Below, piece by piece: positions 284-60,068 of a stretch of DNA of 64,000 nt. A model generated the notes under the pieces. The model did no database searches. It saw only the letters and a list, made by a program, of their open reading frames with translations, and had not been told where the DNA came from. A program made the position numbers and the translations under genes. Each line of letters begins with the position of its first letter. The first letter of the stretch is position 1. The stretch lies in the NCBI GenBank assembly GCA_964641025.1, contig CAZXJP010000005.1, positions 21,628-85,627 of the forward strand, read 5' to 3'. Source of the DNA: an uncultured Candidatus Saccharibacteria bacterium. GTDB lineage: Bacteria > Patescibacteriota > Saccharimonadia > Saccharimonadales > Saccharimonadaceae.

Positions 284-1200
284 GTAACGCGATATATTGG
301 TACTGCGTCGGTGTCACTATAATTGTTATCTGACTCTGAAGCTAGTGTTAAGCGGTAGCGATTGTTGACATCATCATAGTGCCCATATGCCACCTGGTTC
401 CCGTGCTCGGCGACTATTCGACTCCCCGTCAACAGTATGCGTCTATCATTCTTTGGATTACGTTGCATCGTGTCGGCTAGCCATTCTGCTATTCCATAGG
501 TTTGAAAATTGAATTGACGATTGGATGGAGATGGATCCACTAGATTGCGTAACGAAGACAAGCTAAGATCTACGTCTTTGGTGGTGCGGACTACGTGAAT
601 TCCCCAGTCCCCACCCTCTATCAGATCGTGCTCTAACTGATCTTTAAATGACCATCCCCCATTCACGTTGCTACTGCCATAGCTCAATATTGAGTCTGCG
701 TCGCCTAGTCTGTTATTAATCTCTTGTGGTATATCATCAATGCTGAGTCCGTCTATCGCGCGCATTTGGGCTAACCATTCAGGCAACTTTTTTATTCGAT
801 TTAGCATATCCGAGTATGGTACGAGCAGTATCTCGGAGTCTTCTTCTGCGGTGTCTACGTCGTTGACCACAGTGTCATATAACTGTGTCAGGGTTTCTGC
901 GAGTGCCGGGAATAGCTCTAATAGTTCATGACTAGTATTGGGCATTTTAACATCTAGCAAATCATTAAACTTTTGCCACTTGTCGGTAGCCTCGAATAAT
1001 CGTTTCTCGGCCCACTCGCGCGCGTCATCGTCCATTTCCAAATCTTCAAGTGAACGTGACTTTGCTAACCGCTCCGCGATTGATAGTCCGCCAACACTTT
1101 TTCCCATAGATCTCAATAATTCTTTTGGCAAATCTGAATATGACACGGTGGGGCTTTGTTCGAGCCTCGGTAACTCAAGCTTAAACTTTTCTCTACTCAC
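280..1200 (-). CDS. hypothetical protein, tightly coupled downstream partner of the AAA+ ATPase
   Basis: 306-aa ORF whose start lies 1 nt after the stop of the 481-aa ATPase ORF. No recognisable domain. Confidence 0.5.
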   Translation of the reverse strand: MSREKFKLELPRLEQSPTVSYSDLPKELLRSMGKSVGGLSIAERLAKSRSLEDLEMDDDAREWAEKRLFEATDKWQKFNDLLDVKMPNTSHELLELFPALAETLTQLYDTVVNDVDTAEEDSEILLVPYSDMLNRIKKLPEWLAQMRAIDGLSIDDIPQEINNRLGDADSILSYGSSNVNGGWSFKDQLEHDLIEGGDWGIHVVRTTKDVDLSLSSLRNLVDPSPSNRQFNFQTYGIAEWLADTMQRNPKNDRRILLTGSRIVAEHGNQVAYGHYDDVNNRYRLTLASESDNNYSDTDAVPIYRVT

Positions 1201-1201
1201 T

Positions 1202-2647
1202 TTATCGACTCCTATCCGTGCGAGACAGATATCTTAATGTCTTGTTTGCCCAGTTAGCATTGTTCGTCGTACCTCCTTGATCGAGTCCTCGAACGATTTC
1301 TTGTATTTTTGTATCAAGATTCATTCGTGGTTTGTTACCATCGGCGCATCGGGTTAACGCGTCCATCATAGTGCGCGGCGAAATACAGTCGCTCATAACT
1401 GGTTTTTCCATACCGGTAATATCCGCGGTAGATATAGAAGATCCGGATTCGGATAATGTCGAGCGAAGACCTTCTGCCAAGGGCTTGCTATATAGGTGCT
1501 GGGTAACGTGAGCTAATTTTACGAATTTTACAAGCGTGTTTACGTCTACATGAGGGCTAATGACGCCCCTCTCGTTACAAACCGATGCTAGCGCTAACCT
1601 TGTAAGCTCGACTGGCTCTTGCAGTAGTGGATTTTCATTACTTTCGTCTGGAAAGTGGACATTGATTATATCGAACCGATCACGTGTAGCAGGATCTATG
1701 CGATTACGATCACGATAATTAGACGATATCTCGTTTGCTGTTGCAGATACATGAAAACCGTTCGCCACTTTAACCATTCTGCCGCCATCTTCATCTATAG
1801 CTATTAACTCTCCGGGGCGGCTCAAAAACACCTGGTTTAATCTGATAACTATCTTTGGGTCATTCGCGTTAAATTCATCAGCTACTACCGACTTTCCCTC
1901 CGTTATTGCTTTTAGCAACGGAGAATCGACGAATCTGAGCTGGTTGGTCGCCTTATCGTAGTCGTGTTTGCCCATTATCTCATCTGACATTTTGTCGCCT
2001 TTTCCAGCTATAAAAACACGATCATCGATTCCATTAGCCATGTCCATGACGAACACGGCTAAATTTGTCTTTGCTATACCCTTGTCCCCGACTAATAATG
2101 AATGCTTGTTGTCTACGCGATTACTTACGTCTTTGCTAATGATATCTATGGCTTGATCGTCGAATACTATTTTATATTCGCGCAATGTCTGCGAATCAAA
2201 CGCTGCCATGGCCTGGACTCGATCTTCGTGTGATAGTTCCGTGAAAACTTCGTGTCTGTGTTTGATGGCCTCATCAAGTTTGTTTTGATAATAATCGCGT
2301 TCCGCGTTAGTAAAAGTTCTCCCCTCTTTTGATGCGTTCAGTAAAGCTTGCCACATGTTTTTGTGTGCCGTAAGTTCATCGTACTGTATCGCTATTAACT
2401 CATCTAGATTCGCAGGTTCATAGTCATGACGGGACAAAACGTTATAGAGCGAAGATAGCACAAATGCAGTTAACTCGCGATTGCGAGGTTCCGAGTCCAG
2501 ATTAACGAACAGTTCTCCATTTTGTTCGTCAAAAAGATTAGGAGTGTTGCATTGATTACTTTCGGACCTGGTGTTTACACCCTGCTGGTCTAACAGTTTG
2601 CAAATATCACCGCACTCCTTGGTGCGCTTGCACTGAAACGCCTCCAT
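1202..2647 (-). CDS. AAA+ ATPase, MoxR/AAA_5-like (CbbQ/NorQ-type core)
   Basis: Walker A GDKGIAKT, Walker B VVADEFN, sensor-like ATAN and an RDRF arginine region. Carries a unique ~170-aa N-terminal extension. Confidence 0.65.
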   Translation of the reverse strand: MEAFQCKRTKECGDICKLLDQQGVNTRSESNQCNTPNLFDEQNGELFVNLDSEPRNRELTAFVLSSLYNVLSRHDYEPANLDELIAIQYDELTAHKNMWQALLNASKEGRTFTNAERDYYQNKLDEAIKHRHEVFTELSHEDRVQAMAAFDSQTLREYKIVFDDQAIDIISKDVSNRVDNKHSLLVGDKGIAKTNLAVFVMDMANGIDDRVFIAGKGDKMSDEIMGKHDYDKATNQLRFVDSPLLKAITEGKSVVADEFNANDPKIVIRLNQVFLSRPGELIAIDEDGGRMVKVANGFHVSATANEISSNYRDRNRIDPATRDRFDIINVHFPDESNENPLLQEPVELTRLALASVCNERGVISPHVDVNTLVKFVKLAHVTQHLYSKPLAEGLRSTLSESGSSISTADITGMEKPVMSDCISPRTMMDALTRCADGNKPRMNLDTKIQEIVRGLDQGGTTNNANWANKTLRYLSRTDRSR

Positions 2648-45429: not shown

Positions 45430-45636
45430 CGCCCTTTTCTCCCATTTAAAACCTCCGGTGGCGAGTAGTATCCGGGGCTTTCCCTAGACTTGCTCATTCA
45501 CGCGGAAGCGAGTTTATATTTCGTACTTTCAATAAGTTACCAATCAATCCTATCATAAAAATAGAGGTAGGTCAATACTTTTCTATCTGTAACGCTTATT
45601 TTTGTAAAACTTGCTTTTTTGGTTTAGCATTGAGGT

Positions 45637-45972
45637 ATGGAAAAATCTACAGAACGCAAACGATACAATCACGACGAGGCCGTCGCGTTGGACGCCAGAA
45701 TAGAAGAATTAACCTTACTTAACACCGAGAACGAGGATCAAACAACAGAGGCCGAACCAGAAGTTAACATTGATGCTATAACCACTAGAATGGCAGAAAT
45801 CGCGACTCGAATGGAAGAAATGCTGGCTAAATACTCTCCCAAAAGTACCAACACAGAGTCTGAAGTTCAATCAGATACTGCAACGACCGACGAAGAAGAC
45901 GTCGATGACAGTGATGACGATGACGCGTACGATCATCCCGATTTCGAAGACATCTATCCGTACTTTCGGTAG
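45637..45972 (+). CDS. small highly acidic hypothetical protein
   Basis: 111-aa ORF with a D/E-rich tail. Confidence 0.4.
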   Translation: MEKSTERKRYNHDEAVALDARIEELTLLNTENEDQTTEAEPEVNIDAITTRMAEIATRMEEMLAKYSPKSTNTESEVQSDTATTDEEDVDDSDDDDAYDHPDFEDIYPYFR

Positions 45973-45987
45973 CGTATAATAAGGGTA

Positions 45988-46902
45988 GTGCTCGGAATCA
46001 GTAGTAAAAAGGTAAAAAACAGACACCTAGTCTTGGCAGGGGTCTTGTTAGCATTGTCGATTACCACGGTCGCTGGCGTTCAAATCGCCAAACACTATGC
46101 CAACCAGAATACACAGGCGACTGTCAAAAAAACCGCTGCGTATCTAGAAGACCTAGACAAAAAAATAGCCGACGTACGTGAAAAGCGTATAGCTGAACAA
46201 AAGGCCAAAGAGGAAGCCGAACGAAAAGCAAAAGAAGCCGCAAAAAAGGCGGAAGCCAAACGCAAGGCCGAAGCCGAGGCAGCCCTACAGGCACAGTTGG
46301 CGGGTCAGGTGGTTACCCCATCCGCCTGCAAGATAAGCGGCGCGCACGGCAACCCTAGTGCAATAGACGTCGTAGTCAACAAAAAACGATGCCTCAACCC
46401 CGTAAACTTCGTGCCTTCTGATTTGGTATCTTATAGTGGCTATCTCGTTAGTAACAAAATACTTGCGAAATTAACAGCCATGATCAACGCGGCGTCAACA
46501 GCCGGTGAATCACTAGGCCTTACTAGCGCCTATCGCTCATACGACAACCAAGTTTCCACTTATAACTACTGGGTCAATTACCATGGCAGCACGGCTGTCG
46601 CGGACACTATCAGCGCGCGACCTGGATATAGTGAACATCAGACGGGTTTTGCTATAGATTTGTCGGGTAGTGGTCAAAATTTGAATGGCTTCGCAGGCAC
46701 TAGTGAATACACGTGGATGAAAAAGAACGGGCATAAGTACGGCTTTATCCAACGATATAAATCTGGCTACGAGTCTATCACTGGCTATAGCGCGGAAGCA
46801 TGGCACTGGCGCTATGTCGGGGTCTCGGTCGCTACGGACATGAAGAACAAGGGTATTCATACACTGGAACAATACTGGGGAATTCAAGGGGGCGGATATT
46901 AG
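45988..46902 (+). CDS. M15B (VanY-type) D-alanyl-D-alanine carboxypeptidase, membrane anchored
   Basis: TM anchor, a KAEAK coiled-coil stretch, then SAYRSYDNQ, PGYSEHQTGFAIDL and EAWHWRYVG. Confidence 0.75.
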   Translation: MLGISSKKVKNRHLVLAGVLLALSITTVAGVQIAKHYANQNTQATVKKTAAYLEDLDKKIADVREKRIAEQKAKEEAERKAKEAAKKAEAKRKAEAEAALQAQLAGQVVTPSACKISGAHGNPSAIDVVVNKKRCLNPVNFVPSDLVSYSGYLVSNKILAKLTAMINAASTAGESLGLTSAYRSYDNQVSTYNYWVNYHGSTAVADTISARPGYSEHQTGFAIDLSGSGQNLNGFAGTSEYTWMKKNGHKYGFIQRYKSGYESITGYSAEAWHWRYVGVSVATDMKNKGIHTLEQYWGIQGGGY

Positions 46903-47240
46903 ATAACTATGCCTGCAGGAACAAAGTAGCTAAGTATAGTCACAATAACTAGTACCGCGAACCATATTTTGCGATCCAATTGGTTTTTTTCGAATAGTCT
47001 AATAGCAACCAGGGCCAATAGTGTGCCTAGCGGAAAGGCCGCGACGATTATACCGTTCCATTCCATGGGGATTGCCAATTTTAGCCATAGCGTACCCAGT
47101 AGTACAACAGTGACTAACTTTAAAAAATATACCCCGTCGCCTTCTGACAAATGATATCCCACGTTATTACGACCCCTGTTGCGAGCATATGTGCGATGAC
47201 GCGGTTTTCGATATTGTGTTTGTGTTTGTGACATTTTCAA
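46899..47240 (-). CDS. small membrane protein
   Basis: 113 aa with a basic N-terminus and three hydrophobic helices. Confidence 0.4.
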   Translation of the reverse strand: MKMSQTQTQYRKPRHRTYARNRGRNNVGYHLSEGDGVYFLKLVTVVLLGTLWLKLAIPMEWNGIIVAAFPLGTLLALVAIRLFEKNQLDRKIWFAVLVIVTILSYFVPAGIVI

Positions 47241-47282
47241 CTATTTTAGCATAATCGTTGTGCATATGATACTGACAAATAG

Positions 47283-47314
47283 AAAAATCCCCAAGGAAAT
47301 CCTGGAGGATTTTT
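47283..47314 (-). terminator. hairpin after rpsJ
   Basis: AAAAATCC ... GGATTTTT stem with an internal CCTCCAGG region, then a T-rich run on the minus strand. Confidence 0.4.
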
Positions 47315-47326
47315 CATGGTACGAAA

Positions 47327-47650
47327 TTACATTCGAATTTCAGCGTCTACGCCAGCAGGCAATGACAGATTCTGCAAGCTGTCGATAGTCTTTGGCGTAG
47401 CGTTGGTGATGTCGATCAGGCGTTTGTGTACGCGCATCTCAAATGACTCACCACCTGTTTTGTACACATGGGGGCTTTTGACCACTGTGTAGTTACTACG
47501 ACGCGTAGGAAGAGGTACTGGGCCTGCAATACTGGCGCCTGTACGAATAGCCGTGTCGATAATTTGTTTTGCTGATTGGTCGATAACCTTGTGGTCATAG
47601 GCCTTTAGTCGGATGCGAATTCGCAATCCTTCTGGTTTTGCATCTGCCAT
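47327..47650 (-). CDS. rpsJ: 30S ribosomal protein S10
   Basis: [21 protein letters not shown] ... [12 protein letters not shown]. Confidence 0.95.
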
Positions 47651-47759
47651 GATAGTAGATACCTTTCTATTGTGCTATACCGTAACCTTGGTCAGGTTTT
47701 GCGACTTACGTTTTGCGCTCACAGCCAAGTTCTCGGTATGATTATTTAATACATATATA

Positions 47760-47788
47760 CTTATATCACAGATGTAGGCTATCGACAA
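47760..47788 (-). promoter_or_regulatory. sigma70-like promoter for rpsJ
   Basis: On the minus strand: TTGTCG - 17 nt - TATAAG, about 110 nt upstream of the rpsJ ATG. Confidence 0.5.
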
Positions 47789-47810
47789 GTCGTACACATG
47801 ATGTTATAGT
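47782..47810 (+). promoter_or_regulatory. promoter of the plus-strand cassette array
   Basis: TCGACA - 17 nt - TATAGT with an extended -10 TG (TGTTATAGT). Its -35 overlaps the rpsJ -35 on the other strand. Confidence 0.5.
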
Positions 47811-47839
47811 TGTGCAAGTTTCCGAGTCTAGGAGGAGAT

Positions 47840-47896
47840 ATGGAAATCGCACAAGCTCTACCCGGTAAAAGCGCCAGTGGCGTCAGAGGCCCATAG
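47840..47896 (+). CDS. 18-codon leader ORF (MEIAQALPGKSASGVRGP), probable remnant
   Basis: It has the same TCTAGGAGGAGATATGGAA start context, and similar first residues, as the 48311 gene. Confidence 0.25.
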   Translation: MEIAQALPGKSASGVRGP

Positions 47897-47908
47897 GAGG
47901 CGACAGTG

Positions 47909-48205
47909 ATGGACACGCAGGAAAAGTACGAGTACGAGTTCAACCACGCGTACCACAACGTAGCGGAGCTCCTGGTGATGTACACCGGTGTTGATATGGT
48001 CGACATCAACGTCACCAGAACCCTATCTGATCTGGGACTCAGCCATCTAGAGCGCATCCAGCTACGGCTGAAGCTCCAAGAGCTGTTCGACGAGATGGAC
48101 GAATTCACGGACGACGAGTTCAATGGGTTCCCCAATACCTCTGTTGGCAGGCTGGTCGACATGATTCTGCAGAAGCGCGGGATCGAAATCGCCCCTCCAC
48201 AGTAG
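47909..48205 (+). CDS. carrier-protein-like small acidic protein (ACP/PCP fold?)
   Basis: LSDLGLSHLERIQLRLKLQELFD resembles the DLGxDSL helix II region, but Ser and His are swapped relative to the canonical (D/H)S. AGGAGG precedes the start. The segment looks GC-richer than its surroundings by eye. Confidence 0.35.
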   Translation: MDTQEKYEYEFNHAYHNVAELLVMYTGVDMVDINVTRTLSDLGLSHLERIQLRLKLQELFDEMDEFTDDEFNGFPNTSVGRLVDMILQKRGIEIAPPQ

Positions 48206-48212
48206 GGCCACA

Positions 48213-48283
48213 CCCGTCAAACCACGTGAAGATCCGCTGGACCTCCGTGGTCTGGCGGGTTTTCGCATTTTATGTTATAATAG
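48213..48283 (+). repeat. intergenic module, copy 1 (hairpin + T-run + TGTTATAAT)
   Basis: About 80 percent identical by eye to 48626-48695. Ends in TGGTCTGGCGGGTTTTCGCATTTTATGTTATAATA. Confidence 0.8.
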
Positions 48284-48310
48284 ATGTTGTTCCCGATTCT
48301 AGGAGGAGAT

Positions 48311-48583
48311 ATGGAACTAACACAAGTCGCCCCAAGCGCGGCTATCACGGTCGGCAGATTTGACCATTCACACCGAAGCACCGTCATGCGTGTCTATCGC
48401 GAGTTCATGAATCCGCGGGACGCGCGCGACGCGGACAAGGTGTACAGCCTCGGTGTCGGTGAATCAAAGCGTGTACTGGAATGGTCCAACAACATTCCTT
48501 TTACCCGTGTTCATTTCCCGCTTCCCTGCCGCATTACGAATGTGGACGGCCGGCTGGTCAAAACCGTGTGGCGTAGACCGTAA
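48311..48583 (+). CDS. hypothetical protein (90 aa)
   Basis: AGGAGG 48301-48306 followed by ATG 48311. Flanked on both sides by the repeated module. Confidence 0.45.
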   Translation: MELTQVAPSAAITVGRFDHSHRSTVMRVYREFMNPRDARDADKVYSLGVGESKRVLEWSNNIPFTRVHFPLPCRITNVDGRLVKTVWRRP

Positions 48584-48625
48584 GCAACCCGACGAGGTCG
48601 GCACTGCTGTAACCTCACCCCATTT

Positions 48626-48695
48626 CCCGTCAACCATGTCGAAGCCTGTCAGGCCTCCATGGTCTGGCGGGTTTTCGCATTTTGTGTTATAATAA
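48626..48695 (+). repeat. intergenic module, copy 2
   Basis: See copy 1. Ends in TGGTCTGGCGGGTTTTCGCATTTTGTGTTATAATA. Confidence 0.8.
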
Positions 48696-48717
48696 TGCTA
48701 CTCAAGGAGATATACAC

Positions 48718-50112
48718 GTGGCATTGATAGAATCCAGTAGTTATTATGAACGGGAGCGCCTAGACAAAGAGGCGCAGGACAAACACAGGGAAAAAGTTCA
48801 CAATATTGAACATATTGTGAATATGTTCCCTATTTATGGCCTTCTAGAGGATTTATACAAATCCCTTAATCAAGATTATGTCCAGTTTGGTGGCGTACAC
48901 CCAAGCTATCGCTATGACGTTGACGATTTTATTGGCATAAAAGGATCTGCAAGCAAAATTGATTATGGAAAAAAACTGGATAAAATCGAGCTTACTAGTT
49001 ATGGTTCGATAGGTCATACGATGTTTATTGAAATGATACGAACAAAGCTTGCCGAAAAGGATCCCTCATACCACTATCACGTAGGCGTTAGTTATGACGC
49101 ACGAAAGCTCGACAACGGTAGGATTTGTAATGATTCAAAAGAGCTAAAGCTCTCTGTAACCGCTACGCCTAAGTCAGAACATAGCGAACCAACTCCATTA
49201 CTAGAGCCCCAGGTAGCCGTAATGCCTCAGACCACACCTATAGCTGAACCGATTCAAAACCCAGAGACACCACAAAATAATATCTCAACTGCGGGACTAT
49301 TGAACAACGAATCGCTCTCGATACGAAATGAAAAATCTGCAGAAATGCAGAGAATTGTTGAATATTTCCGTCAGTATCATTCAGATCAACTCGTCCAAGA
49401 AATCGTGGATGATATGAACAAAAGATATAAAAACGACCCTACCCGTAGCAACCAATTCAGTGGCTTCACCTTTTTCAGCGACGACGGTAGTGTTGGTTTA
49501 GAAAACCTCTCATTGTTCCGTAGCGATTCAGAAGGCTACGACCTCTTTACTGCTATGGTAATTGAGCAAATGAATGCACGTGACCCTTCATATAGCTATT
49601 CTATTCCTCTCTTTTCGTACGGTGACTCTACCGAGCTACCAAACGACCGGGGGCCAGAAAGATGCTGCCCGCATTTTCAAATATGTGTAATAGCGGAGCC
49701 GAAGCCTGCAATTGAAGCGCAGACGCCACGACCTGTCAAAGAGGTAAAAACCTTAAACCCAGAGCCGTCACAAACAGAAACAGCGACACCTACAGATAAT
49801 ACCAATTACTGGGATAACGAGGATAATTATCGGTTAGATTTAGATCGTCGATTCGAAGACTACCCCTCTATCCCGCCACAAGAACTCATAGAGGAAGAAC
49901 TTGATAGCTACGATGCCGTACTCGAGTTTGACAGAGAATACCATCCAGAGTTGAGAGTATCAGACGACGCGGCATATTGGGACGCAACGAACGTAGTTCA
50001 TTACGGGGCTGCAAAACGATACCGTAGTACACATGACCATCTACTTGAACGTGCGATGGGGCTCCAACCTGGACAGCTGGTATATGCACCAGACGCACCC
50101 CAAATTGACTAG
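48718..50112 (+). CDS. hypothetical protein with an internal duplication
   Basis: GTG 48718 follows AAGGAG. Two similar segments each contain ...IE.M...DPSY.Y..., and they are separated by a Pro/Thr/Glu-rich linker. Confidence 0.5.
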   Translation: MALIESSSYYERERLDKEAQDKHREKVHNIEHIVNMFPIYGLLEDLYKSLNQDYVQFGGVHPSYRYDVDDFIGIKGSASKIDYGKKLDKIELTSYGSIGHTMFIEMIRTKLAEKDPSYHYHVGVSYDARKLDNGRICNDSKELKLSVTATPKSEHSEPTPLLEPQVAVMPQTTPIAEPIQNPETPQNNISTAGLLNNESLSIRNEKSAEMQRIVEYFRQYHSDQLVQEIVDDMNKRYKNDPTRSNQFSGFTFFSDDGSVGLENLSLFRSDSEGYDLFTAMVIEQMNARDPSYSYSIPLFSYGDSTELPNDRGPERCCPHFQICVIAEPKPAIEAQTPRPVKEVKTLNPEPSQTETATPTDNTNYWDNEDNYRLDLDRRFEDYPSIPPQELIEEELDSYDAVLEFDREYHPELRVSDDAAYWDATNVVHYGAAKRYRSTHDHLLERAMGLQPGQLVYAPDAPQID

Positions 50113-50135
50113 AACTGGAATATTTTACGTTTTTG

Positions 50136-50144
50136 TGGTATAAT
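50136..50144 (+). promoter_or_regulatory. extended -10 element TGGTATAAT
   Basis: Lies 20 nt upstream of ATG 50164, with AGAGG between. Confidence 0.45.
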
Positions 50145-50163
50145 GAAGAGATAGAGGTACATT

Positions 50164-50553
50164 ATGTCACCAGAGCGGGAACCAAGAGGACACGTAGAGA
50201 TTACACAGGACGATAGAATTCGCCTGTCAAATGACGTCCTCGAGGTAATCCAAACTCACTTCGGAATAGGCACTGTTCAGGAAATAGAAATAGGGTTTCA
50301 ACGCATACTGCAGGAATCCGAGATCGAAGGATTAACGGATGCAGATGCGCTTGACGTACCATACGAAACCTTCAAGAATATTGGCGCTATGCTACAGGAA
50401 CTCTTGCGTGATTATGGCGATCAACGTACCGTCAAAGTTCGCGCCGACCGTATATTTCACATATTGTACGACCCTACTACCCCAGAAAAGGCTGCCATGG
50501 GTATGCCAAAACATATTCGCAATCTCCTGCCCGGTATGCGACCTCCCCGTTAG
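50164..50553 (+). CDS. hypothetical protein
   Basis: 129-aa ORF. No motif recognised. Confidence 0.45.
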   Translation: MSPEREPRGHVEITQDDRIRLSNDVLEVIQTHFGIGTVQEIEIGFQRILQESEIEGLTDADALDVPYETFKNIGAMLQELLRDYGDQRTVKVRADRIFHILYDPTTPEKAAMGMPKHIRNLLPGMRPPR

Positions 50554-50591
50554 TTTGCAATCCATCATGCATATGCATATACTTGCTAATT

Positions 50592-51029
50592 ATGAATGAC
50601 CTAGAACCAAACATAGACCCTGCGCAGGCCGAACACGACGAAACGGAATTACCAACTATAGAGGAGTTAGAGTATCCAAAACACGACCTTGCGACAGCCT
50701 CGCGCGTCCTGGGTGTATTATCAAATCCAAAAGTAGCCGAGATATATAATGAATGCGTCATACATATCAATGACGAAGAAAAGTTCCAGCAAACCTTCGC
50801 CGACCTACGCCAAGTCTGTAACGTGGCACGTGACGAGGTAGACGAAAGACTGCATACATTAGCCCCAGTTGGATTGGCTTTTTGCTATGCGTCTGCATAT
50901 CAAGAAACGGGTCACTCGCATGAACGCGATAGCGAACTAAAAGCACTATTGCCTACATTTGCGCCATTCGACAGGAATGAACAGCGATTACACGACTACA
51001 CAAAGCAAGCCTTGGGTATATACGAATAA
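50592..51029 (+). CDS. hypothetical acidic protein
   Basis: ATG 50592 (MNDLEPN). The track's TTG start at 50583 is an alternative. Confidence 0.45.
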   Translation: MNDLEPNIDPAQAEHDETELPTIEELEYPKHDLATASRVLGVLSNPKVAEIYNECVIHINDEEKFQQTFADLRQVCNVARDEVDERLHTLAPVGLAFCYASAYQETGHSHERDSELKALLPTFAPFDRNEQRLHDYTKQALGIYE

Positions 51030-51042
51030 AACCTATAAATAG

Positions 51043-51069
51043 AAAACACCGCCATTACGGCGGTGTTTT
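51043..51069. terminator. bidirectional rho-independent terminator (cassette array / tuf)
   Basis: AAAACACCGCC-ATTAC-GGCGGTGTTTT between convergent genes. Confidence 0.7.
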
Positions 51070-51087
51070 CATTGGTGATAACTCTGA

Positions 51088-52272
51088 TTATTTAGTAATC
51101 TTCGTTACGACACCTGCACCAACGGTGCGGCCACCTTCACGGATAGCGAAGCGTAGACCATCATCCATAGCGATTGGAGATAGAAGCTTTACGTTAAACG
51201 TTACAGTGTCACCAGGCATGACCATTTCTTTGTCTGCTGGTAGCTCAACTTCACCAGTTACGTCAGTTGTACGGAAGTAGAACTGTGGTTTGTAACCCTT
51301 GCTGAATGGTGTGTGGCGTCCGCCTTCTTCTTTCTTCAAGATGTAGACTTCTGCTGCAAATTCAGTGTGTGGAGTCAATGTGCCAGGCTTTACAACTACC
51401 TGACCACGCTCGATTTGTTCGCGCTCGATACCTCGTAGCAATAGTCCAGCGTTGTCACCAGCCTGACCTTGGTCTAGGTTCTTCTTGAAAGCTTCGATAC
51501 CTGTTACGACAGATTTTTGTGTGTCGCGGATACCAACAATTTCAACTTCGTCGTTTAGCTTTACGATACCTTGTTCAATACGACCGGTAGCAACTGTTCC
51601 ACGACCCTTGATCGAGAAAACGTCCTCGATAGGCATTAGGAATGATTTGTCTAGGTCGCGCTTTGGCTCTTCGATGTAGTCATCAAGTGCTTTTACTAGT
51701 TCCATGATAGCGTCTTCGCTTGCAGCGTCGCCTTCTAGAGCTTTAGTAGCAGAACCCTTGATGATAGGAGCGTTGTCGCCATCATAACCGTTCTTGGTCA
51801 ATAGTTCGCGTACATCCATTTCAACTAGTTCGACTAGCTCTTCGTCAGCTAGGTCCATCTTGTTTAGGAATACTACGATCTTTGGTACGTTCACCTGGTG
51901 AGCCAATAGTACGTGCTCACGAGTCTGTGGTAGTGGGCCATCGTTTGCTGCAACCACTAGGATCGCGCCATCGATTTGTGCGGCACCAGTGATCATGTTC
52001 TTGACGTAGTCAGCGTGTCCTGGCATGTCAACGTGAGCGTAGTGTCGGCTCTCTGATTCGTATTCTTGGTGAGAAGAAGCGATGGTTATACCACGTGCTT
52101 TTTCTTCTGGTGCGTTGTCAATTTGGTCGTAAGCGACTTGCTTGTTGACATCACTAGGTAGTTTTTTTGCGAGGACAGTCGTAATTGCTGCCGTCAGTGT
52201 TGTTTTACCGTGGTCAACGTGACCCATGGTACCAACGTTGACGTGCGGTTTGCTTCGATCGAAATCTGCCAT
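51088..52272 (-). CDS. tuf: elongation factor Tu
   Basis: [18 protein letters not shown] and NKMD motifs. 394 aa. Confidence 0.97.
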
Positions 52273-52396
52273 TGAGATTTTTCTCCTTCGCTGCCTTGCG
52301 AATTATTAATAAAAATTTTGACGCACAAATCTAATAGAGTTTATGCGACGTATGGATTAAATTATACACGCATTTTAGGGGTGTGTAAAGTGTTTT

Positions 52397-52987
52397 CTAG
52401 TTTAACTTTATGACTGGCAAGTCGCCCGTATAGAACTTCGCGACTACCTTGGCAACTGGGGCGAGTTCAGCACCCATGACATCCAGAGCCTCTTTGCCTA
52501 TATCGGGAATATCATTGTACCTAGTATATAAATCGATCAAAAATAGCGCCTTTTGACCAGGTCTCGCGGCGCAAAATGCGCGCAAATACGTCGGATTTTG
52601 TCTAGAAAATTCAAACTCACCATCTTTTATATACTCGTAACAGTCGCCGGCCAGATGACCATGCATTAAGTCTGGCCCGTCTTTTTTGGTTACGACACCG
52701 TCCGGCGTGAATACCCATGGCGCAGCCACGAATTCATCTGAATCGGTAAAGTTTCCAAACTGTACGTGGGCATGAGAAATAGCCTCGACACCGGCGCGTT
52801 CTAATACTTCCGTATAATTCGTAAAGCCGTTTACATCAGTTAGATCGTCGCCTGAGTCAGAGTAATACTCGCCCACTACGTCCGTACAGTATATTGAAGC
52901 ATCTCGTATACGCGGAAAATGATCGTTGTGACGGATATTGTCACGTACAACGTTCATATACCTCTGGTATTTCGATTGCTCACTCAT
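52397..52987 (-). CDS. hypothetical protein (probably leaderless mRNA)
   Basis: Start taken at ATG 52987 (MSEQSKY), 7 nt after a consensus -10. The longer track ORF would overlap the divergent gene. Confidence 0.45.
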   Translation of the reverse strand: MSEQSKYQRYMNVVRDNIRHNDHFPRIRDASIYCTDVVGEYYSDSGDDLTDVNGFTNYTEVLERAGVEAISHAHVQFGNFTDSDEFVAAPWVFTPDGVVTKKDGPDLMHGHLAGDCYEYIKDGEFEFSRQNPTYLRAFCAARPGQKALFLIDLYTRYNDIPDIGKEALDVMGAELAPVAKVVAKFYTGDLPVIKLN

Positions 52988-52993
52988 AGTTTC

Positions 52994-53022
52994 ATTATAG
53001 CATAAGCGACACAATTTGTCAA
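52994..53022 (-). promoter_or_regulatory. consensus sigma70 promoter TTGACA-17-TATAAT
   Basis: Minus strand: TTGACA (53022-53017), a 17-nt spacer, TATAAT (52999-52994). The ATG at 52987 coincides with the expected +1. Confidence 0.6.
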
Positions 53023-53042
53023 TATTAGTGTATGATGTCTGC

Positions 53043-53759
53043 ATGGAAAATAACGAACATCGTATACGGGGCGTGAAGGCAACTGACATAGGTTGGCAGT
53101 ATGAATCTGATGGCGACGCCCTCGACCCTTCCGAGGTGTATCCTGTTATCGATCCTATTTTGAACAAACTGTACGGAATTATGAAAAACGACGAGTCGAA
53201 CGTGCGTACTATTCAGTCCTATCATCCAAAAGCCCAGCTGGGCGCATCCCTAGCTTTTGCTTCGATGTTATGGGGGCGTGATTATGACCAATGGCCACGA
53301 CCGGATATAGATAAAAGGATCGTTCGCTGTCTAGGCGCTCCCGCATGCAATGTCTGCAGTCACTATGACATCAACTACGCCGAAGCCCCTGCGAACTCAT
53401 GGCGCGTGGAAAGGGACCAAGACCCTGTTTATGGGGAGTTACGAGCACATATATTAGAAAACGAAGGAGATCCCCTGAATGAATCTCTGACCGACGCCCA
53501 TTTGATTGATGACGTCGAACACGAGGAGTCCTACAACAAATATGGCAAAAGGACTTTATCGGATCGAATGATGCGCACGATCGTATCGAAGTTTGGTCCA
53601 CTATACGACGTCAGTCGTCAAACTGCAGAAAAGCCCGTCAGTATGTTGCTAGGCATACTGCCAAACGAAGATTATGAATCACAAGATAGATTAGAACATC
53701 CTATGCTAAAGAACATATCCGAAGATAAGTTCGGCTTTATATATCGTCGTTTTGGCTAG
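53043..53759 (+). CDS. hypothetical protein
   Basis: ATG 53043 (MENNEHR) lies 7 nt after TATGAT. No motif recognised. Confidence 0.45.
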   Translation: MENNEHRIRGVKATDIGWQYESDGDALDPSEVYPVIDPILNKLYGIMKNDESNVRTIQSYHPKAQLGASLAFASMLWGRDYDQWPRPDIDKRIVRCLGAPACNVCSHYDINYAEAPANSWRVERDQDPVYGELRAHILENEGDPLNESLTDAHLIDDVEHEESYNKYGKRTLSDRMMRTIVSKFGPLYDVSRQTAEKPVSMLLGILPNEDYESQDRLEHPMLKNISEDKFGFIYRRFG

Positions 53760-54796
53760 GCCGGTTTTTTCTGCCAAATTGCTCGACGTTTTTTGTTTTC
53801 TTGATATTTGCGAATAGTATTACGGATATCCAGCGCCATGTATTTGTCGCGATTCTTGCCTTCCAAGGCATCTACTACACCCCTCGGATTCTCTGGTCCA
53901 GTTGCGTGTGAAGTTTCTTTTCGCGTTAGATCATAACGAAATTCTACTGGTATATCGTATGAATCACTGATAACGCCGGCCGATCGGCGTGTATTGATCA
54001 GGTGGTCGTCGAGGGATGAAAGCACTATAATTCCTTCGTCTAGCTCTGATCCAGCCTGCGCCAGATCCATCTTTGCTATGTTTTCGCGGTGCATAAATGG
54101 TATTTGGCCCTTTGCCGCCGCGTACCTAACCCTACGGGTAGACCACAGGCGCTCTTCGGCCTCTTCCCGCGTGACCAATTCTGGGTCAAAGTCCAGCGAC
54201 TCGTCACCCAAACCTAGCTGATTCACGAGATGGTACATTCTGTCCGTGCTAAATGTTGCGGGCAATAGGCTTCCTGCCAAGATCCCCAGTCTAGACACTA
54301 TATCTAGGTCACCTTTTCCGGATAGTGGGCTGTCTAGTACTTTTCGGTGTATTTCACCCATTTCATGGCGTACGTCCTCGTCAGACGCGATCTTTGCGTC
54401 TAGTAACGCCCCCATAGACAGCGCATAAATTAACAATGGACGATGACCGTCCATTTTTCGTGCTTTTAGTATTTCGTCTTTGTACGAATCCAGGTTCATA
54501 CCTCTTTCTGGATGCACTACGAAATGCGTTGTCCCCAAATGCTCTAGGTGTTTATCAAAGTTTTTCGCTAGTATCTCGCCGTCTGCATGGTACCCGGGAA
54601 AGACCAATACGGAATAATCGCCAGGATGTTGCGTAGTCAATACACGCGCCTTATCACTTTTATCCTTGTAGGTGTGACGATGAACGGAATAGTCGGTAGC
54701 AAATGCAGCGGTCGCCGCTAATGAAACGGCACCCAACGTTAGTAGGGTGCCTTCTTTGATGCATCTTTCATTTGGTCTGATAATTTCGTGAGTCAT
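53756..54796 (-). CDS. membrane-anchored alpha/beta-hydrolase-like protein
   Basis: TM helix near the N-terminus, VLVFPGYHADG, and a possible nucleophile elbow ALSMGA. Weak call. Confidence 0.35.
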   Translation of the reverse strand: MTHEIIRPNERCIKEGTLLTLGAVSLAATAAFATDYSVHRHTYKDKSDKARVLTTQHPGDYSVLVFPGYHADGEILAKNFDKHLEHLGTTHFVVHPERGMNLDSYKDEILKARKMDGHRPLLIYALSMGALLDAKIASDEDVRHEMGEIHRKVLDSPLSGKGDLDIVSRLGILAGSLLPATFSTDRMYHLVNQLGLGDESLDFDPELVTREEAEERLWSTRRVRYAAAKGQIPFMHRENIAKMDLAQAGSELDEGIIVLSSLDDHLINTRRSAGVISDSYDIPVEFRYDLTRKETSHATGPENPRGVVDALEGKNRDKYMALDIRNTIRKYQENKKRRAIWQKKPA

Positions 54797-54948
54797 CTAT
54801 AACTCCTCTGTTATCGTATCTCTTTCCGCTCATCCACAGTATCTGTGGTTGCTCTCATTATACGCCCGTCATGTCAAAAAATCAATACTTTTTAACATTT
54901 TGGGAATTTTTCAAGAACTTATGCTTGTTTTTCAAAGCTGATTTCAAG

Positions 54949-54988
54949 CAAAAACAAAGCAACACCACAGTTACGCGGTGTTGCTTTG
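54949..54988 (-). terminator. rho-independent terminator after fusA
   Basis: CAAAGCAACACC ... GGTGTTGCTTTG followed by TTTTTG on the minus strand. Confidence 0.65.
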
Positions 54989-55003
54989 TATCCAACTTGT
55001 TAT

Positions 55004-57209: not shown

Positions 57210-58130
57210 TTACATGCCGCGCATGGACTGGATTGGATAACTGCGATCCAGGTAATCGGCAATCTTTGCAATAGTTTCGGAATCAAAGCCGGCGGTATGA
57301 GCGTATTCACAAACAGATCTGTTCCTACTAGCTCGACCGTTTTTTTCGGCTGACACTTCATAGTGATCCGAGGCTATTTCTTGAATAATCTTGAGCGAAC
57401 AACAGATTCTTGCATTTTCCATAGATCGAACATTAGGATCAATTCCTAGTATTTCTTGCATATGAGCATAGACCTGTACGTCATGTTCGCGACGCTCGTG
57501 AACGTGCATAGCAAATGCCTCGGCTTGCTGCGTATAGATCAGATCGTCAAAGTTGTCAGGATCAAACGATGCACCCGGCACGGACTCGGCAAAGAATTCC
57601 TGCCATGATTCGGTAAATTGCTCTGGAAATACAGCGGCCAGCGTCACCTGCGAATTCTTTTTGTAATAATCCGATGTTATCAGCCCTGCGAACTCCGTGT
57701 CTCTTTTGCGCGCGTTATAGATGATGCGCGAACCCAAAAACACTAATACATGCTGGAACTCCCGTTCCTTTATATATCGATCCAAACTGACAAGCTCTCT
57801 ATAGGGTACAAAATCACTAGTACCGTATAGTCCTGACCATTCGGGGTCGGTCATCATCTGGTTTTCGACGCTGTCCGAAATAGAAAACATATAGTTAGTA
57901 AACTGTTCGTCAGAGCATTTACCATCGGGATCAATAACCAACTTCATATCAGGATGGTGCTGAGCCCATTCAGTCAGCATCCCCACCATCTCTTCGAAGG
58001 ATTCTTGTACTAGCTGGTGTTCTTCGCTCGTTTCTTCTTCGTCGATAATCTTTGGGTGCTGTTCCAATAGCAACCAAAGCTCGTCATCCAATTCACTCGC
58101 GCCCCAGGCTTCGCCCCTGTCATATTCCAT
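57210..58130 (-). CDS. hypothetical acidic protein
   Basis: Start tentatively at ATG 58130 (MEYDRGE), which avoids overlap with the divergent 58205 gene. No motif recognised. Confidence 0.4.
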
Positions 58131-58204
58131 AGTGTATCTATAAAACCACACGAAAGTCATAGACTCAAACATTAGCGTGAAAAAAAGGTGTATACTATTA
58201 ACAT

Positions 58205-58906
58205 ATGCGCGACAGCTACTTTGGTAAAACATTCTGTTTTTCACCGCCGGTAATGCTGATTACCTTCTTGTTAGAGTTCGCGATGGCCTTTTATGTATTG
58301 TGGCGATACAAACTAACTACCGTTACAAAGATAGTCGTCGCCATGCTGTTTTGTCTGGGCGTTTTCCAGTTAGCAGAATATATGATCTGCGGAGGCCTGG
58401 GCCTCGGCCATGCAGAATGGGTACAGCTGGGCTATGTTGCGATTACATTATTACCAGCTCTCGGCATACATTTGACCGCGACGCTCGCCAAAAAGAAAGC
58501 TAGACCACTGGTATTCGCGGCATACGCGACAGCCCTGGGCTACGTACTATATTTCATAGCCTATGGAGCGCAGGTAATTAGCAGTCAATGCGCACCGAAC
58601 TACGCCATATTCGACATGGAAGGTCAGGGTTACCTATTCTATGGAACGTATTACTTTGGCTGGCTACTGGTAACGATTGCCTTATCTACGTTGTGGGCGC
58701 GTCAAAAGCCAAAGCAAGCCGCCGCCCTACGCTGGACGGTTATCGGTTATTCGGCCTTTATCGTGCCTGTGATGATAGCAAACATGATAGATCCAGCCAC
58801 CATTCGTGCTATTCCGTCTATCATGTGCGGATTCGCGATCATATTAGCAATCGTGCTCGTATGGCGCGTCATGCCACTATCTAAAACGCCTTTGCGTAAA
58901 CACTAG
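58205..58906 (+). CDS. polytopic membrane protein
   Basis: 233 aa with about 7 hydrophobic helices. No motif recognised. Confidence 0.5.
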   Translation: MRDSYFGKTFCFSPPVMLITFLLEFAMAFYVLWRYKLTTVTKIVVAMLFCLGVFQLAEYMICGGLGLGHAEWVQLGYVAITLLPALGIHLTATLAKKKARPLVFAAYATALGYVLYFIAYGAQVISSQCAPNYAIFDMEGQGYLFYGTYYFGWLLVTIALSTLWARQKPKQAAALRWTVIGYSAFIVPVMIANMIDPATIRAIPSIMCGFAIILAIVLVWRVMPLSKTPLRKH

Positions 58907-59667
58907 TATCTGTCGTGAAAGAATTCGACCAAACAAAGTAGCGTCTGTTTACCGTATTTCTCGTCTACGTGAAGTTCTTTTCCGACTTCGAACAAGCCTT
59001 TATATAGTTGCGCGCTCATACCATCGGGAGCGCGTTGACACAGTGCCTGCATAGCTTTTACGGCGGACACTATCTCTAACGTATTGCCTAAATCCATCAA
59101 CGTGGCTCCGACTTTATCGCATGCATCTCGAACTTCCTGATTAGCGACTATTCGTTCGTTCATGCTCTCTTCAACCGTCAGTAACGATTCGTTCAGGTAT
59201 GTTTGATAATATTCATCGTCGGCGCGGAGTCCTTCGACGTTCGGTGTTTCTAAATCTATGAAACGTTGCCAGGGTTCGTCCAATGCCAATCCGTGATGTG
59301 AGATCAATTCTGCCTGTAATTGTTTCTTTTTTATCGAGTTTTCTTTTGGCGTTATGTCAAAGTCTGGATTTAAATCTATGAATTTTATCGTCGTTACAGA
59401 CGACACCACGTCTGACTGAAACTCATATAGATCCATCCACGCCATATAGCATTCCATGGCGCGTTCACCCAGCGATAGATGACTGTTACGGTCGCTATCC
59501 ATATACTCTTTGACGTAGGCCAGCCATGACTCGCTTCTTTCTTGGCTGTCAAATCGTATAATCGACTTGATTCCGTAGTTTGGTAATTTGCCATACAACT
59601 CCTTTGCGACATCGTTAAAGCTCTGTTGTAACTCGTGAGGCTCGTTACCCGTATACTCTCTTTCCAT
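58903..59667 (-). CDS. hypothetical protein (probably leaderless)
   Basis: Start at ATG 59667 (MEREYTG), about 7 nt after TATAAG. Longer N-termini would cover the divergent promoter. Confidence 0.4.
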   Translation of the reverse strand: MEREYTGNEPHELQQSFNDVAKELYGKLPNYGIKSIIRFDSQERSESWLAYVKEYMDSDRNSHLSLGERAMECYMAWMDLYEFQSDVVSSVTTIKFIDLNPDFDITPKENSIKKKQLQAELISHHGLALDEPWQRFIDLETPNVEGLRADDEYYQTYLNESLLTVEESMNERIVANQEVRDACDKVGATLMDLGNTLEIVSAVKAMQALCQRAPDGMSAQLYKGLFEVGKELHVDEKYGKQTLLCLVEFFHDRY

Positions 59668-59674
59668 ATACATA

Positions 59675-59699
59675 CTTATACCACTTTTCGTGGTATAAT
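59675..59699. promoter_or_regulatory. back-to-back extended -10 elements forming an inverted repeat
   Basis: CTTATACCAC-TTTTC-GTGGTATAAT. This reads as TGGTATAAT on the plus strand and TGGTATAAG on the minus strand. Confidence 0.5.
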
Positions 59700-59705
59700 C
59701 CATGC

Positions 59706-60068
59706 ATGACAGAAAAAGCGAGGGAACACAAAAAAGCTTTCGAGCACGACCAGTACAGCGCGGACGTACAGCTCCTGCTAGCAAACGAACGGACTCTGTT
59801 AGCCTGGATACGCACCGGATTGGCAGTCGTTGCCGGTGGCATAGCCCTAGCGGCATTCTACAAAAGTAGCCCCCTACCAGGACTCCTGATTCTCATTTTG
59901 GGTATTCTGATCGCCCTCATCGGTAATCGTAGGTACAAGATGGCCGAAAAAAGCATTCGTGCCGGTAAACTACCCGCCAGTGACAAGGCCGCTCCCCAGC
60001 AACTATTCGTAATAGCTGTTTTAGTGCTGATTATCGTTATACTCCAAGTCACACTGCTTAGCGAATAG
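59706..60068 (+). CDS. DUF202 / YidH-family membrane protein
   Basis: Signature LLANERTLLAWIRTGLAVVAGG. Confidence 0.7.
   Translation: MTEKAREHKKAFEHDQYSADVQLLLANERTLLAWIRTGLAVVAGGIALAAFYKSSPLPGLLILILGILIALIGNRRYKMAEKSIRAGKLPASDKAAPQQLFVIAVLVLIIVILQVTLLSE

Follow-up and report, generated by a model that had tools for sequence, protein, structure and literature searches.

Within the 64-kb stretch of Saccharibacteria DNA analysed here (the window, to whose positions all coordinates refer), five plus-strand genes, named Pa to Pe, and an 18-codon upstream open reading frame (ORF) occupy the gap between tuf and rpsJ (focus region 47651–51087). This region is probably a hotspot of gene accretion and exchange, bounded by the tuf terminator on one side and the rpsJ promoter on the other and found across a clade of Saccharimonadales. 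Comparison with related loci indicates a clade-wide variable locus at a fixed site, whose genes appear to be individually promoted and whose two front cassettes are followed by predicted terminators. The analysis also points to an imported composition in Pa and Pb, to allele replacement in Pc, and to a conserved, structured boundary element, which we call E.

Gene content of the tuf–rpsJ gap

Both genes that bound the region, rpsJ (47327–47650) and tuf (51088–52272), are read on the minus strand, and all long ORFs in the 3437-nt spacer between them lie on the plus strand, opposite to both ribosomal operons. An earlier note, made from the letters of the window, had described five plus-strand orphan genes at a junction where tuf and rpsJ are normally adjacent. 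The normal adjacency was confirmed with 31 other bacteria, a baseline set of loci from a tuf scan of genome contigs. The spacer measures 32 to 469 nt in 30 of them, with three other Patescibacteria at 118 to 197 nt, and 2648 nt in the one exception, a Dermatophilaceae genome. The relatives of the window were found via contigs that encode its S10 or one of four other S10 variants, and they make up about 25 distinct loci and one S10 cluster (90% identity), whose single named member, a Candidatus Saccharimonadales bacterium, gives the clade its name here; the sample comprises L081–L106, L120, and L134–L145, and one source project for these sequences is a set of aquaculture metagenomes. All of these loci have a spacer of 680 to 2902 nt with one to six genes, almost all of which are on the strand opposite the ribosomal operons. 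From this comparison of spacer lengths, it becomes clear that tuf–rpsJ adjacency is general in bacteria, yet a filled gap is the rule in this clade. Beyond the clade, the tuf scan of genome contigs found nothing with more than 71% identity to the tuf of the window.

The five genes are real, as the earlier note had read them. The ratio of nonsynonymous to synonymous substitution rates (dN/dS) against L081 is 0.024 for Pe, 0.043 for Pd, 0.064 for Pb, and 0.147 for Pa, and the synonymous divergence (dS) of the array genes between the window and L081, L082, and L087 (0.15–0.40) is similar to that of neighbouring genes. These three relatives, which were assembled independently (ENA, NCBI, and Logan), share 92 to 97% identity with the window. 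Because dN/dS is low and the same array is present in independent assemblies, misassembly and spurious ORFs are excluded. The upstream ORF is open in L081 as well, with two amino-acid changes.

Between the same conserved flanks, the content of the gap differs across the approximately 25 loci, and it does so even among genomes with identical or nearly identical S10. At least 10 protein families are spread over the gaps in a mosaic pattern. The gap of L081 has the same five genes with Pc replaced by a homologue of 286 amino acids (aa), that of L083 combines a 449-aa relative of Pc with an unrelated 140-aa protein and a Pe homologue, and those of L088 and L089 hold homologues of Pd and Pe only. 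In L090 to L099, there are mixtures of single- and double-domain acyl carrier proteins (ACPs), a 92-aa family, a 111-aa family, and others, and in L140 to L145, a Pe homologue (E value = 6e-7) and the 140-aa family are accompanied by two cassettes that differ between close relatives. L140 and L141 are 97% identical in a core gene but have different cassettes, and the cassette order differs too. A recurring order runs from the rpsJ control region through variable cassettes, the semi-conserved genes (the Pc/A-domain family, followed by Pd or the 140-aa family), and the Pe family to tuf. The five genes of the window occur independently of one another in the relatives. Pa and Pb are found in the window lineage only, and homologues of Pc, Pd, and Pe are found at the same place in related genomes; the description of all five as orphans therefore suits Pb but not Pc, Pd, and Pe.

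The first 0.9 kb or so of the array had looked GC-rich by eye, and the composition agrees: GC is 0.53 to 0.55 at 47800–48700 and 0.456 in the whole window. The codon positions tell the same story, with a GC content at third positions (GC3) of 0.77 in Pa and 0.63 in Pb against 0.447 ± 0.038 (maximum 0.541) for 42 window ORFs. GC3 is native in Pc, Pd, and Pe (0.40–0.45; Pc, 0.40). Judged by GC3, Pa and Pb may both be recent imports, and the value of 0.77 makes this probable for Pa. High GC3 also occurs in cassettes of L094, L099, L100, and L120. In L099, the gap contains an 88-aa ACP (989–1255, minus strand; GC3 0.75) that matches mycobacterial AcpM at 50 of 76 aligned residues, which is about two-thirds identity (E value = 6e-29); other bacterial ACPs match it far less well. 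Such closeness suggests an actinobacterial source and transfer into the gap. Actinobacteria are the usual hosts of Saccharibacteria.

A replacement can be mapped in Pc. Identity between the window and L081 falls from more than 90% to noise across 48743–50131, and the flanks on both sides are 92 to 97% identical. The swapped segment extends from 25 nt inside Pc to just upstream of the −10 motif of Pd. The two Pc alleles share 30 to 35% identity, and the window copy has an extra A domain. As dS in the flanking genes is only about 0.2, the difference must be a replacement by recombination, not divergence in place.

Taken together, the different gene sets at near-identical S10, the foreign composition of Pa and Pb, and the swap of Pc bear out the suggestion of an accretion hotspot with cassette turnover. 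Synteny, conservation, and core composition, the pattern that the earlier note had named as speaking against it, do describe the gap as a place and the Pe family, but they do not describe what the gap contains.

The conserved hairpin behind the cassettes

E is about 70 nt long and consists of two similar segments, S1 and S2, each complementary to a third segment, S3, which is followed by a U tract. The two copies in the window, E1 and E2, have fold energies of −31 and −27 kcal/mol and score 80.8 and 83.9 bits, respectively, with a covariance model built from eight copies. Strong matches (47–87 bits) were obtained in the window, L081, L120, L094, L097, L090, and L140–L145, with two copies each in the window, L081, L120, and most of the L140–L145 loci, and weaker ones in L091, L098, L099, and L134–L139. 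In the approximately 390 kb searched, every one of these matches is in a tuf–rpsJ gap and on the cassette strand; one low-scoring match (19.4 bits) lies outside the gap, in L099, between rpsJ and rplC and downstream of VanY. Neither the rest of the 64-kb window nor three outgroup loci from Patescibacteria yielded a copy with the model. In addition, no Rfam family matched E (best score 19 bits, threshold 50), IMG/VR held no copy, and an exact-pattern scan of JGI metagenomes returned one true match, beside rpsJ, and 26 chance matches in GC-rich coding DNA. The hairpin recurs in other lineages behind unrelated ORFs, and the closest copies to E2 are those of L081, L120, L140, L097, and L094. Across lineages, the copy closest to the semi-conserved genes appears to be orthologous, and the extra copies look like lineage-specific duplicates. 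We rejected the idea that the hairpin is a private repeat or a generic terminator, as it is conserved, covaries, and is specific to the tuf–rpsJ gap.

Pairing has been maintained in both arms. In the S2:S3 stem, 94.9% of the cells are paired and 6 of the 17 pairs have changed on both sides, a result that was reached by none of 500 shuffles (slid controls gave 29–56%); the alignment was partly fitted by the covariance model, and these numbers lean towards structure. S1 pairs with S3 better than shuffled S1 does in 10 of 12 copies (p ≤ 0.02 each; p = 0.007 for the duplex of E1), and in L099 and L090, this pairing is maintained with a wholly different sequence that is fully compensated. By inspection of the W_T2 fold, the non-Watson–Crick pairs in the S2:S3 stem are G·U pairs on the cassette strand, which indicates that E is selected or functions at the RNA level.

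The position of E relative to the genes is also largely constant. S1 begins at the upstream stop codon or no more than 8 nt after it in 9 of 12 copies, and in most copies of L140 and L141 too. Because S1 adjoins the stop codon, E amounts to nearly the whole 3′ untranslated region. In the window and in L140, the extended −10 of the next cassette lies directly 3′ of the U tract. Within E, an 11-nt core is present in direct copies (S1 and S2) and in an inverted copy (S3). At 1960–2010 of L141 (minus strand), the upstream ORF ends where S1 would be expected, and only S2, S3, and the U tract are left, which places a junction between S1 and S2. With its hairpin and U tract, E is predicted to be an intrinsic terminator with two alternative 5′ arms. 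Fused to a stop codon and with its 5′ arms in competition, such a terminator is a candidate for a new RNA motif. Since S1 lies within the footprint of a ribosome halted at the stop codon, it is conceivable, though doubtful, that E senses translation of the upstream ORF, and the choice between the hairpins could then depend on translation.

Signals and products of the array

Features of the tuf–rpsJ gap. Gene starts were refined from ribosome-binding sites (RBS).
Feature	Position	Strand	Remark
Divergent control region	47651–47839	.	rpsJ promoter and leader on minus, promoter P1 on plus; P1: −35 TCGACA 47782–47787, extended −10 TGTTATAGT 47802–47810, RBS AGGAGG 47830–47835
Upstream ORF, 18 codons (MEIAQALPGKSASGVRGP)	47840–47896	+	Downstream of P1 and AGGAGG
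Pa, 98 aa	47909–48205	+	Divergent, acyl-carrier-protein-like
E1 (T1), element copy	48206–48277	+	Predicted terminator of Pa; S1 48213–48226, S2 48228–48243, loop 48244–48248, S3 and U tract 48249–48271
Promoter P2, 5′ untranslated region, and RBS	48273–48310	+	Extended −10 TGTTATAAT 48273–48281; AGGAGG 48301–48306
Pb, 90 aa	48311–48583	+	Orphan, window lineage only
E2 (T2), element copy	48618–48689	+	Predicted terminator of Pb; S1 48626–48638, S2 48641–48655, loop 48656–48660, S3 and U tract 48661–48683
Promoter P3 and RBS	48685–48717	+	Extended −10 TGTTATAAT 48685–48693; AAGGAG 48704–48709
Pc, 464 aa, GTG start	48718–50112	+	
Promoter P4 and weak RBS	50136–50163	+	Extended −10 TGGTATAAT 50136–50144; AGAGG
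Pd, 129 aa	50164–50553	+	Clade-restricted
Promoter-like site before Pe	50554–50591	+	
Pe, 145 aa	50592–51029	+	Tuf-proximal family
Hairpin between convergent Pe and tuf	51042–51070	.	Perfect 12-bp stem

The earlier note had given the array four extended −10 promoters, strong RBSs, two copies of a hairpin-plus-promoter repeat, iterated units of promoter, gene, and terminator, and a bidirectional terminator shared with tuf. All four −10 sites are where it had placed them, and P4 is kept in L081; the first, however, leads into the 18-codon ORF and not straight into Pa. P1 and its RBS serve this short ORF first, and Pa has its own AGGAGG, which the stop codon of the upstream ORF overlaps. The strong RBSs are present, as AGGAGG or AAGGAG motifs. 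Of the motif TGNTATAAT, the window has 10 copies where 3.3 would be expected, three of them within the 3.4-kb array. The repeats were also found: one repeat is 41 nt long at 95% identity and extends to approximately 72 nt at approximately 85%, and the other is 55 nt long at 78% identity and spans the promoter, the RBS, and the first five codons. The first codons of the upstream ORF belong to this 55-nt repeat, in common with the start of Pb. The longest exact repeat in the array has 24 nt, and in 200 shuffles, the mean was 11.3 and the maximum was 15.

The claims on termination held in part. Terminator prediction called plus-strand terminators after Pa and Pb and none between Pc, Pd, and Pe, so that Pa and Pb are closed units but the last three genes are not and may be read through together. 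The hairpin shared by Pe and tuf (−21 kcal/mol) forms a canonical terminator on the minus strand, but on the plus strand its T run sits within the 3′ arm.

Before Pe, TTTGCA-N18-TATACT is present at 50554–50583, 8 nt upstream of the ATG and without an RBS. TATACT-N8–10-ATG also precedes the tuf-proximal gene in L083, L088, L090, L091, L092, and L094, and the full motif across the clade is (T)TTGCA-N17–18-TATACT, 8 to 10 nt from the ATG and again without an RBS. This suggests that the mRNAs of Pe and of the other tuf-proximal genes may be leaderless or have a very short leader across the clade. In L094, the TATACT motif implies a start codon earlier than the one called. At the other end of the gap, the region upstream of rpsJ (47651–47790) differs from L081 by two changes in approximately 150 nt, and synonymous sites differ by approximately 20 to 30%. 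The rpsJ-proximal part of the control region is recognisable in L090 and L140, and the region upstream of rpsJ may have a regulatory role as promoter and leader of this gene.

The carrier-protein fold that had been proposed for Pa with doubt was strengthened by profile and PDB matches, though the canonical serine is missing. Pa matches the Pfam family PP-binding with an E value of 0.0023 (18.6 bits), below the curated cutoff of 20.8, and its six top PDB matches are all ACP or carrier-protein chains (five ACPs or ACP domains and one MacpD; E values 0.035–0.6). A HMMER scan of 1.84 billion representatives with Pa gave four proteins that passed an E value of 0.001, namely Pa itself, P0031 (E value = 7e-16), P0032 (E value = 7e-5), and a multi-ACP polyketide synthase (E value = 7e-4). 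P0032 was rejected as a spurious relative, being an unrelated Tudor-domain repeat protein. P0031 is an 884-aa protein that contains nothing but 12 tandem PP-binding domains, each with the motif GMQSIL, and is the sole non-self match to Pa with an E value below 1e-10. With the ACPs of the gap, Pa aligns at an hhalign probability of 33% (E value = 4.6e-4). In the alignments with the PDB ACPs and the gap ACPs, the position of the phosphopantetheine serine falls on His46, with Ser45 one residue earlier (LGLSHL), and inspection of the P0031 repeats gives the same alignment. Pa thus lacks the serine that is conserved in the (D)S(L) motif where helix II begins, and it is predicted to be a protein of the carrier-protein fold that lost its canonical phosphopantetheine serine.

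No family, PDB, phage, plasmid, or defence match was found for Pb, Pc, or Pd. We considered whether Pb belongs to the 92-aa family, which follows an ACP gene in L094 and L097, and rejected this at an hhalign probability of 0.1%. Pc starts with an N-terminal segment, continues with two A domains joined through a linker rich in Pro, Thr, and Gln, and ends in a conserved C-terminal domain (approximately 90 aa). Its C-terminal part matches the 449-aa protein of L083, and the 286-aa protein of L081 has a single A domain. The A-domain copies of Pc cover approximately 130 aa each (residues about 40–172 and 217–345) and share the motif (D/E)P-x-Y-x-Y-x-V-x-VSY. By eye, the domain apparently stands alone in cassette proteins of 123 to 124 aa (L140 and L141), and in L120 the gene that follows the element seems to begin with it. 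The 5′ part of the Pc coding sequence also contains an inverted repeat of 31 nt (48776–48842; 77% complementary, 5-nt spacer).

The counterparts of Pd in L088 and L089, which occupy the same position, share 48 to 52% identity with it. The AlphaFold2 model of Pd has a predicted local distance difference test (pLDDT) score of 64 and no fold match; a strand-helix-helix pattern had suggested a ribbon-helix-helix regulator or antitoxin, which neither Pfam nor this model supports. Pe is 47 to 52% identical in L083, L088, and L089, and it is the 138-aa protein of L140 that BLAST matches to Pe with the E value given above. The AlphaFold2 model of Pe has six helices (pLDDT 85.7), and Foldseek found nothing with an E value below 0.4 in the PDB or below 1.6 in BFVD. 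A scan of JGI metagenomes for the Pe family gave no relatives, and the tuf-proximal genes of the P0008 clade match Pe weakly (hhalign probability 8%). A HEPN-type nuclease, considered for the R-x5–7-H motif of Pe, was rejected since the spacing is not constant and no HEPN structure is among the Foldseek matches. Pb, Pc, Pd, and Pe are predicted to be clade-specific cytoplasmic proteins. None of the window proteins matched the defence and toxin–antitoxin models of PADLOC, NCBIfam, and Pfam, where the best E value (0.037) belongs to a homologue in a related genome.

The neighbouring junctions are filled as well. The rpsJ–rplC gap (window 45430–47326) contains an acidic 111-aa protein, a VanY-type D-Ala-D-Ala carboxypeptidase (Pfam E value = 6e-34), and a 111-aa membrane protein. 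Most of the sampled relatives have VanY, which is absent from the L100–L106 clade, and its companions vary; L081 (10417–12809) has an extra gene of 202 aa, and L083 (3880–7181) has two, of 289 and 285 aa. The tuf–fusA gap (window 52273–55003) contains three genes without a family match (196, 238, and 346 aa), and in other clades (L090–L095 and L134) it contains a Na+/H+ exchanger with a TrkA domain. With tuf–fusA, tuf–rpsJ, and rpsJ–rplC all filled, the str/S10 cluster of this clade is open at three junctions in a row. Upstream of fusA (window 57210–59856), there are ORFs of 344, 233, and 317 aa without a Pfam match, and rpsL and rpsG are not at their usual place; with these two genes displaced, the str operon seems rearranged.

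Mechanism, alternatives, and known systems

A mechanism for the proposed hotspot can be outlined. From the promoter divergent from rpsJ, transcription would enter a series of short, variable cassettes (first the upstream ORF together with Pa, next Pb) that would each be closed by E. Because tuf, the rpsJ leader, and the copies of E are conserved across the clade, they could act as homology arms; through them, homologous recombination could insert or substitute cassettes brought in with DNA acquired from relatives or, at times, from high-GC hosts. A single crossover or an unequal exchange at E would yield a second copy of the element and leave the direct repeats that bracket Pa and Pb. Terminators, private promoters, and an orientation against both operons would insulate these essential operons and make the site permissive.

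Several points weigh against this account. The recombination mechanism is inferred from repeats and breakpoints, and the left breakpoint of the Pc swap is 25 nt within the ORF and not at E. The transcription signals are consensus matches only. Neither a donor sequence for Pa or Pb nor an intermediate state was found, and GC-biased gene conversion at a recombination hotspot, not foreign origin, could partly underlie the high GC3. Moreover, conservation extends to the Pe family and to the gap as such; part of the locus is therefore an ancestral set of genes, inherited vertically, that was not accreted, and its persistent place beside tuf and rpsJ could reflect a functional link to translation.

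The main rival is an integron-like, site-specific cassette array, in which E would be a folded recombination site like attC and a recombinase encoded elsewhere would insert and excise units of ORF and E. Such an array would explain why the cassettes are co-oriented beside a fixed promoter region, why E is a conserved imperfect hairpin 3′ of unrelated ORFs that usually abuts the stop codon, and why it contains direct and inverted copies of the 11-nt core; one L141 junction falls exactly between S1 and S2, and cassette order varies between L140 and L141. We nevertheless regard it as unlikely. No recombinase is encoded beside the array, where the neighbours are tuf and rpsJ, and a domain search of ten ORFs in the right flank (53.7–63.9 kb) found none. 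The stem mismatches are G·U on one strand only and are followed by a U tract, which fits an RNA terminator; E is conserved in sequence, whereas attC is conserved mainly in structure. The cassettes have promoters of their own, unlike those of integrons, and the sole swap that can be mapped, that of Pc, breaks in ordinary homologous sequence. A tie to translation has been put forward in another form, as a housekeeping locus whose products associate with EF-Tu or the ribosome and whose variability is fast evolution in a reduced genome. Indeed, no sampled member of the clade has an empty gap, the Pe family always adjoins tuf with a conserved promoter architecture, and Pd and Pe are under strong purifying selection. 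This reading is decidedly improbable given that non-homologous genes occupy the same positions (Pd and the 140-aa family, and the many cassette families), that part of the content is foreign in composition, that the Pc alleles are too divergent for evolution in place at a neighbouring dS of approximately 0.2, and that no sequence or fold similarity to translation factors was found.

The earlier note had suggested a single undescribed accessory system and a resemblance to phage morons, and neither idea withstood the comparison. A coherent five-gene system whose parts act together, such as a defence system, a toxin–antitoxin system, or a carrier-protein pathway, would account for the clustering of the genes on one strand, the purifying selection on all of them, the pairing of Pd and Pe in L088 and L089, and the recurrence of ACP-like genes in the gap. 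Relatives, however, have subsets or substitutes (Pd and Pe only; Pc, the 140-aa family, and Pe; an ACP and the 92-aa family), Pa and Pb differ from Pc, Pd, and Pe in composition and age and are individually terminated, PADLOC, NCBIfam, and Pfam gave no matches, and the array has no enzyme to load or use a carrier protein. We saw no evidence that the five products work together, and the mosaic distribution argues against it, which leaves such a system quite improbable. A prophage remnant or morons inserted at the junction would match the layout of promoter, small gene, and terminator and the atypical GC of Pa and Pb. Yet there was no PHROG match below an E value of 0.1, no tblastn match in 50,697 phage records, no relative of Pa, Pb, or Pc in IMG/VR, and no viral fold in BFVD for the model of Pe; no integrase, tRNA, or attachment repeat was found, and the locus is present throughout a bacterial clade. 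A phage origin is therefore extremely improbable.

Compared with these alternatives, an exchange hotspot accounts best for the locus. It is conceivable, though doubtful, that E is a working part of an undescribed cassette-exchange mechanism, in which units of ORF and E are captured and shuffled at the tuf–rpsJ junction and which gives these host-dependent, DNA-scavenging bacteria an insulated site for trying foreign genes, including an AcpM-type carrier from an actinobacterial host. The genomes of Saccharibacteria, which live attached to host bacteria, are tiny and highly syntenic, and the routes by which these bacteria gain genes are poorly understood. The locus described here is a defined, clade-wide entry point for small genes inside the most conserved bacterial gene cluster, with a boundary element that can be searched for, and the closeness of the L099 cassette to an actinobacterial carrier protein is notable since Actinobacteria are the usual hosts. 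If the exchange model is true, the gap would be a natural landing pad, useful for following gene flow from host to epibiont and adaptation at the strain level, and genetic work on cultivable Saccharibacteria might use it as a neutral, insulated site for insertions.

Among known systems, gene-gain hotspots between core genes, or regions of genome plasticity, are the closest likeness. They share with the tuf–rpsJ gap a fixed site between core genes, varying and partly atypical cargo, and allele replacement with breakpoints in conserved flanks; the switching of capsule or O-antigen loci is an example of recombination in such flanks. The tuf–rpsJ gap differs from them in that it lies in the most conserved bacterial gene neighbourhood, the str/S10 operon junction, in that it gains single small genes instead of multi-gene islands and lacks mobility genes, and in that its units are divided by a conserved RNA element. 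Integron cassettes are likewise co-oriented, variable, single-ORF units beside a fixed control region, with a structured imperfect inverted repeat 3′ of the ORF that often touches the stop codon. However, the tuf–rpsJ array has no adjacent integrase, comprises only two or three units, and equips each cassette with its own promoter, and E differs from attC in its U tract, its strand-specific G·U pairs, and its conserved sequence. Phage morons resemble the cassettes as autonomous units of promoter, small ORF, and intrinsic terminator, but the array is not in a prophage, has no phage homologues, and shows no viral fold in Pe, the only confidently modelled product. Pa resembles ACPs (PF00550) by a weak but consistent similarity along the whole domain, and genuine ACPs with the DSL motif are found in the same gap of L094, L097, and L099; unlike these, Pa falls below the Pfam cutoff, has His46 at the serine site, and has no partner enzymes nearby.

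That the junction tolerates insertions in other phyla is apparent from Actinobacteria. In Mycobacterium tuberculosis, about a dozen genes separate tuf (Rv0685) from rpsJ (Rv0700). Turnover between strains, a cassette structure, or a recurring boundary element is not known from those junctions, though no search aimed at these features was made there. A literature search gave no description of a tuf–rpsJ cassette locus. While gene-gain hotspots between core genes are well known, and the interruption of tuf–rpsJ is known in some Actinobacteria, the combination found here, a tuf–rpsJ hotspot across a clade of the candidate phyla radiation with single-gene cassettes and a three-part terminator fused to their stop codons, appears to be new.

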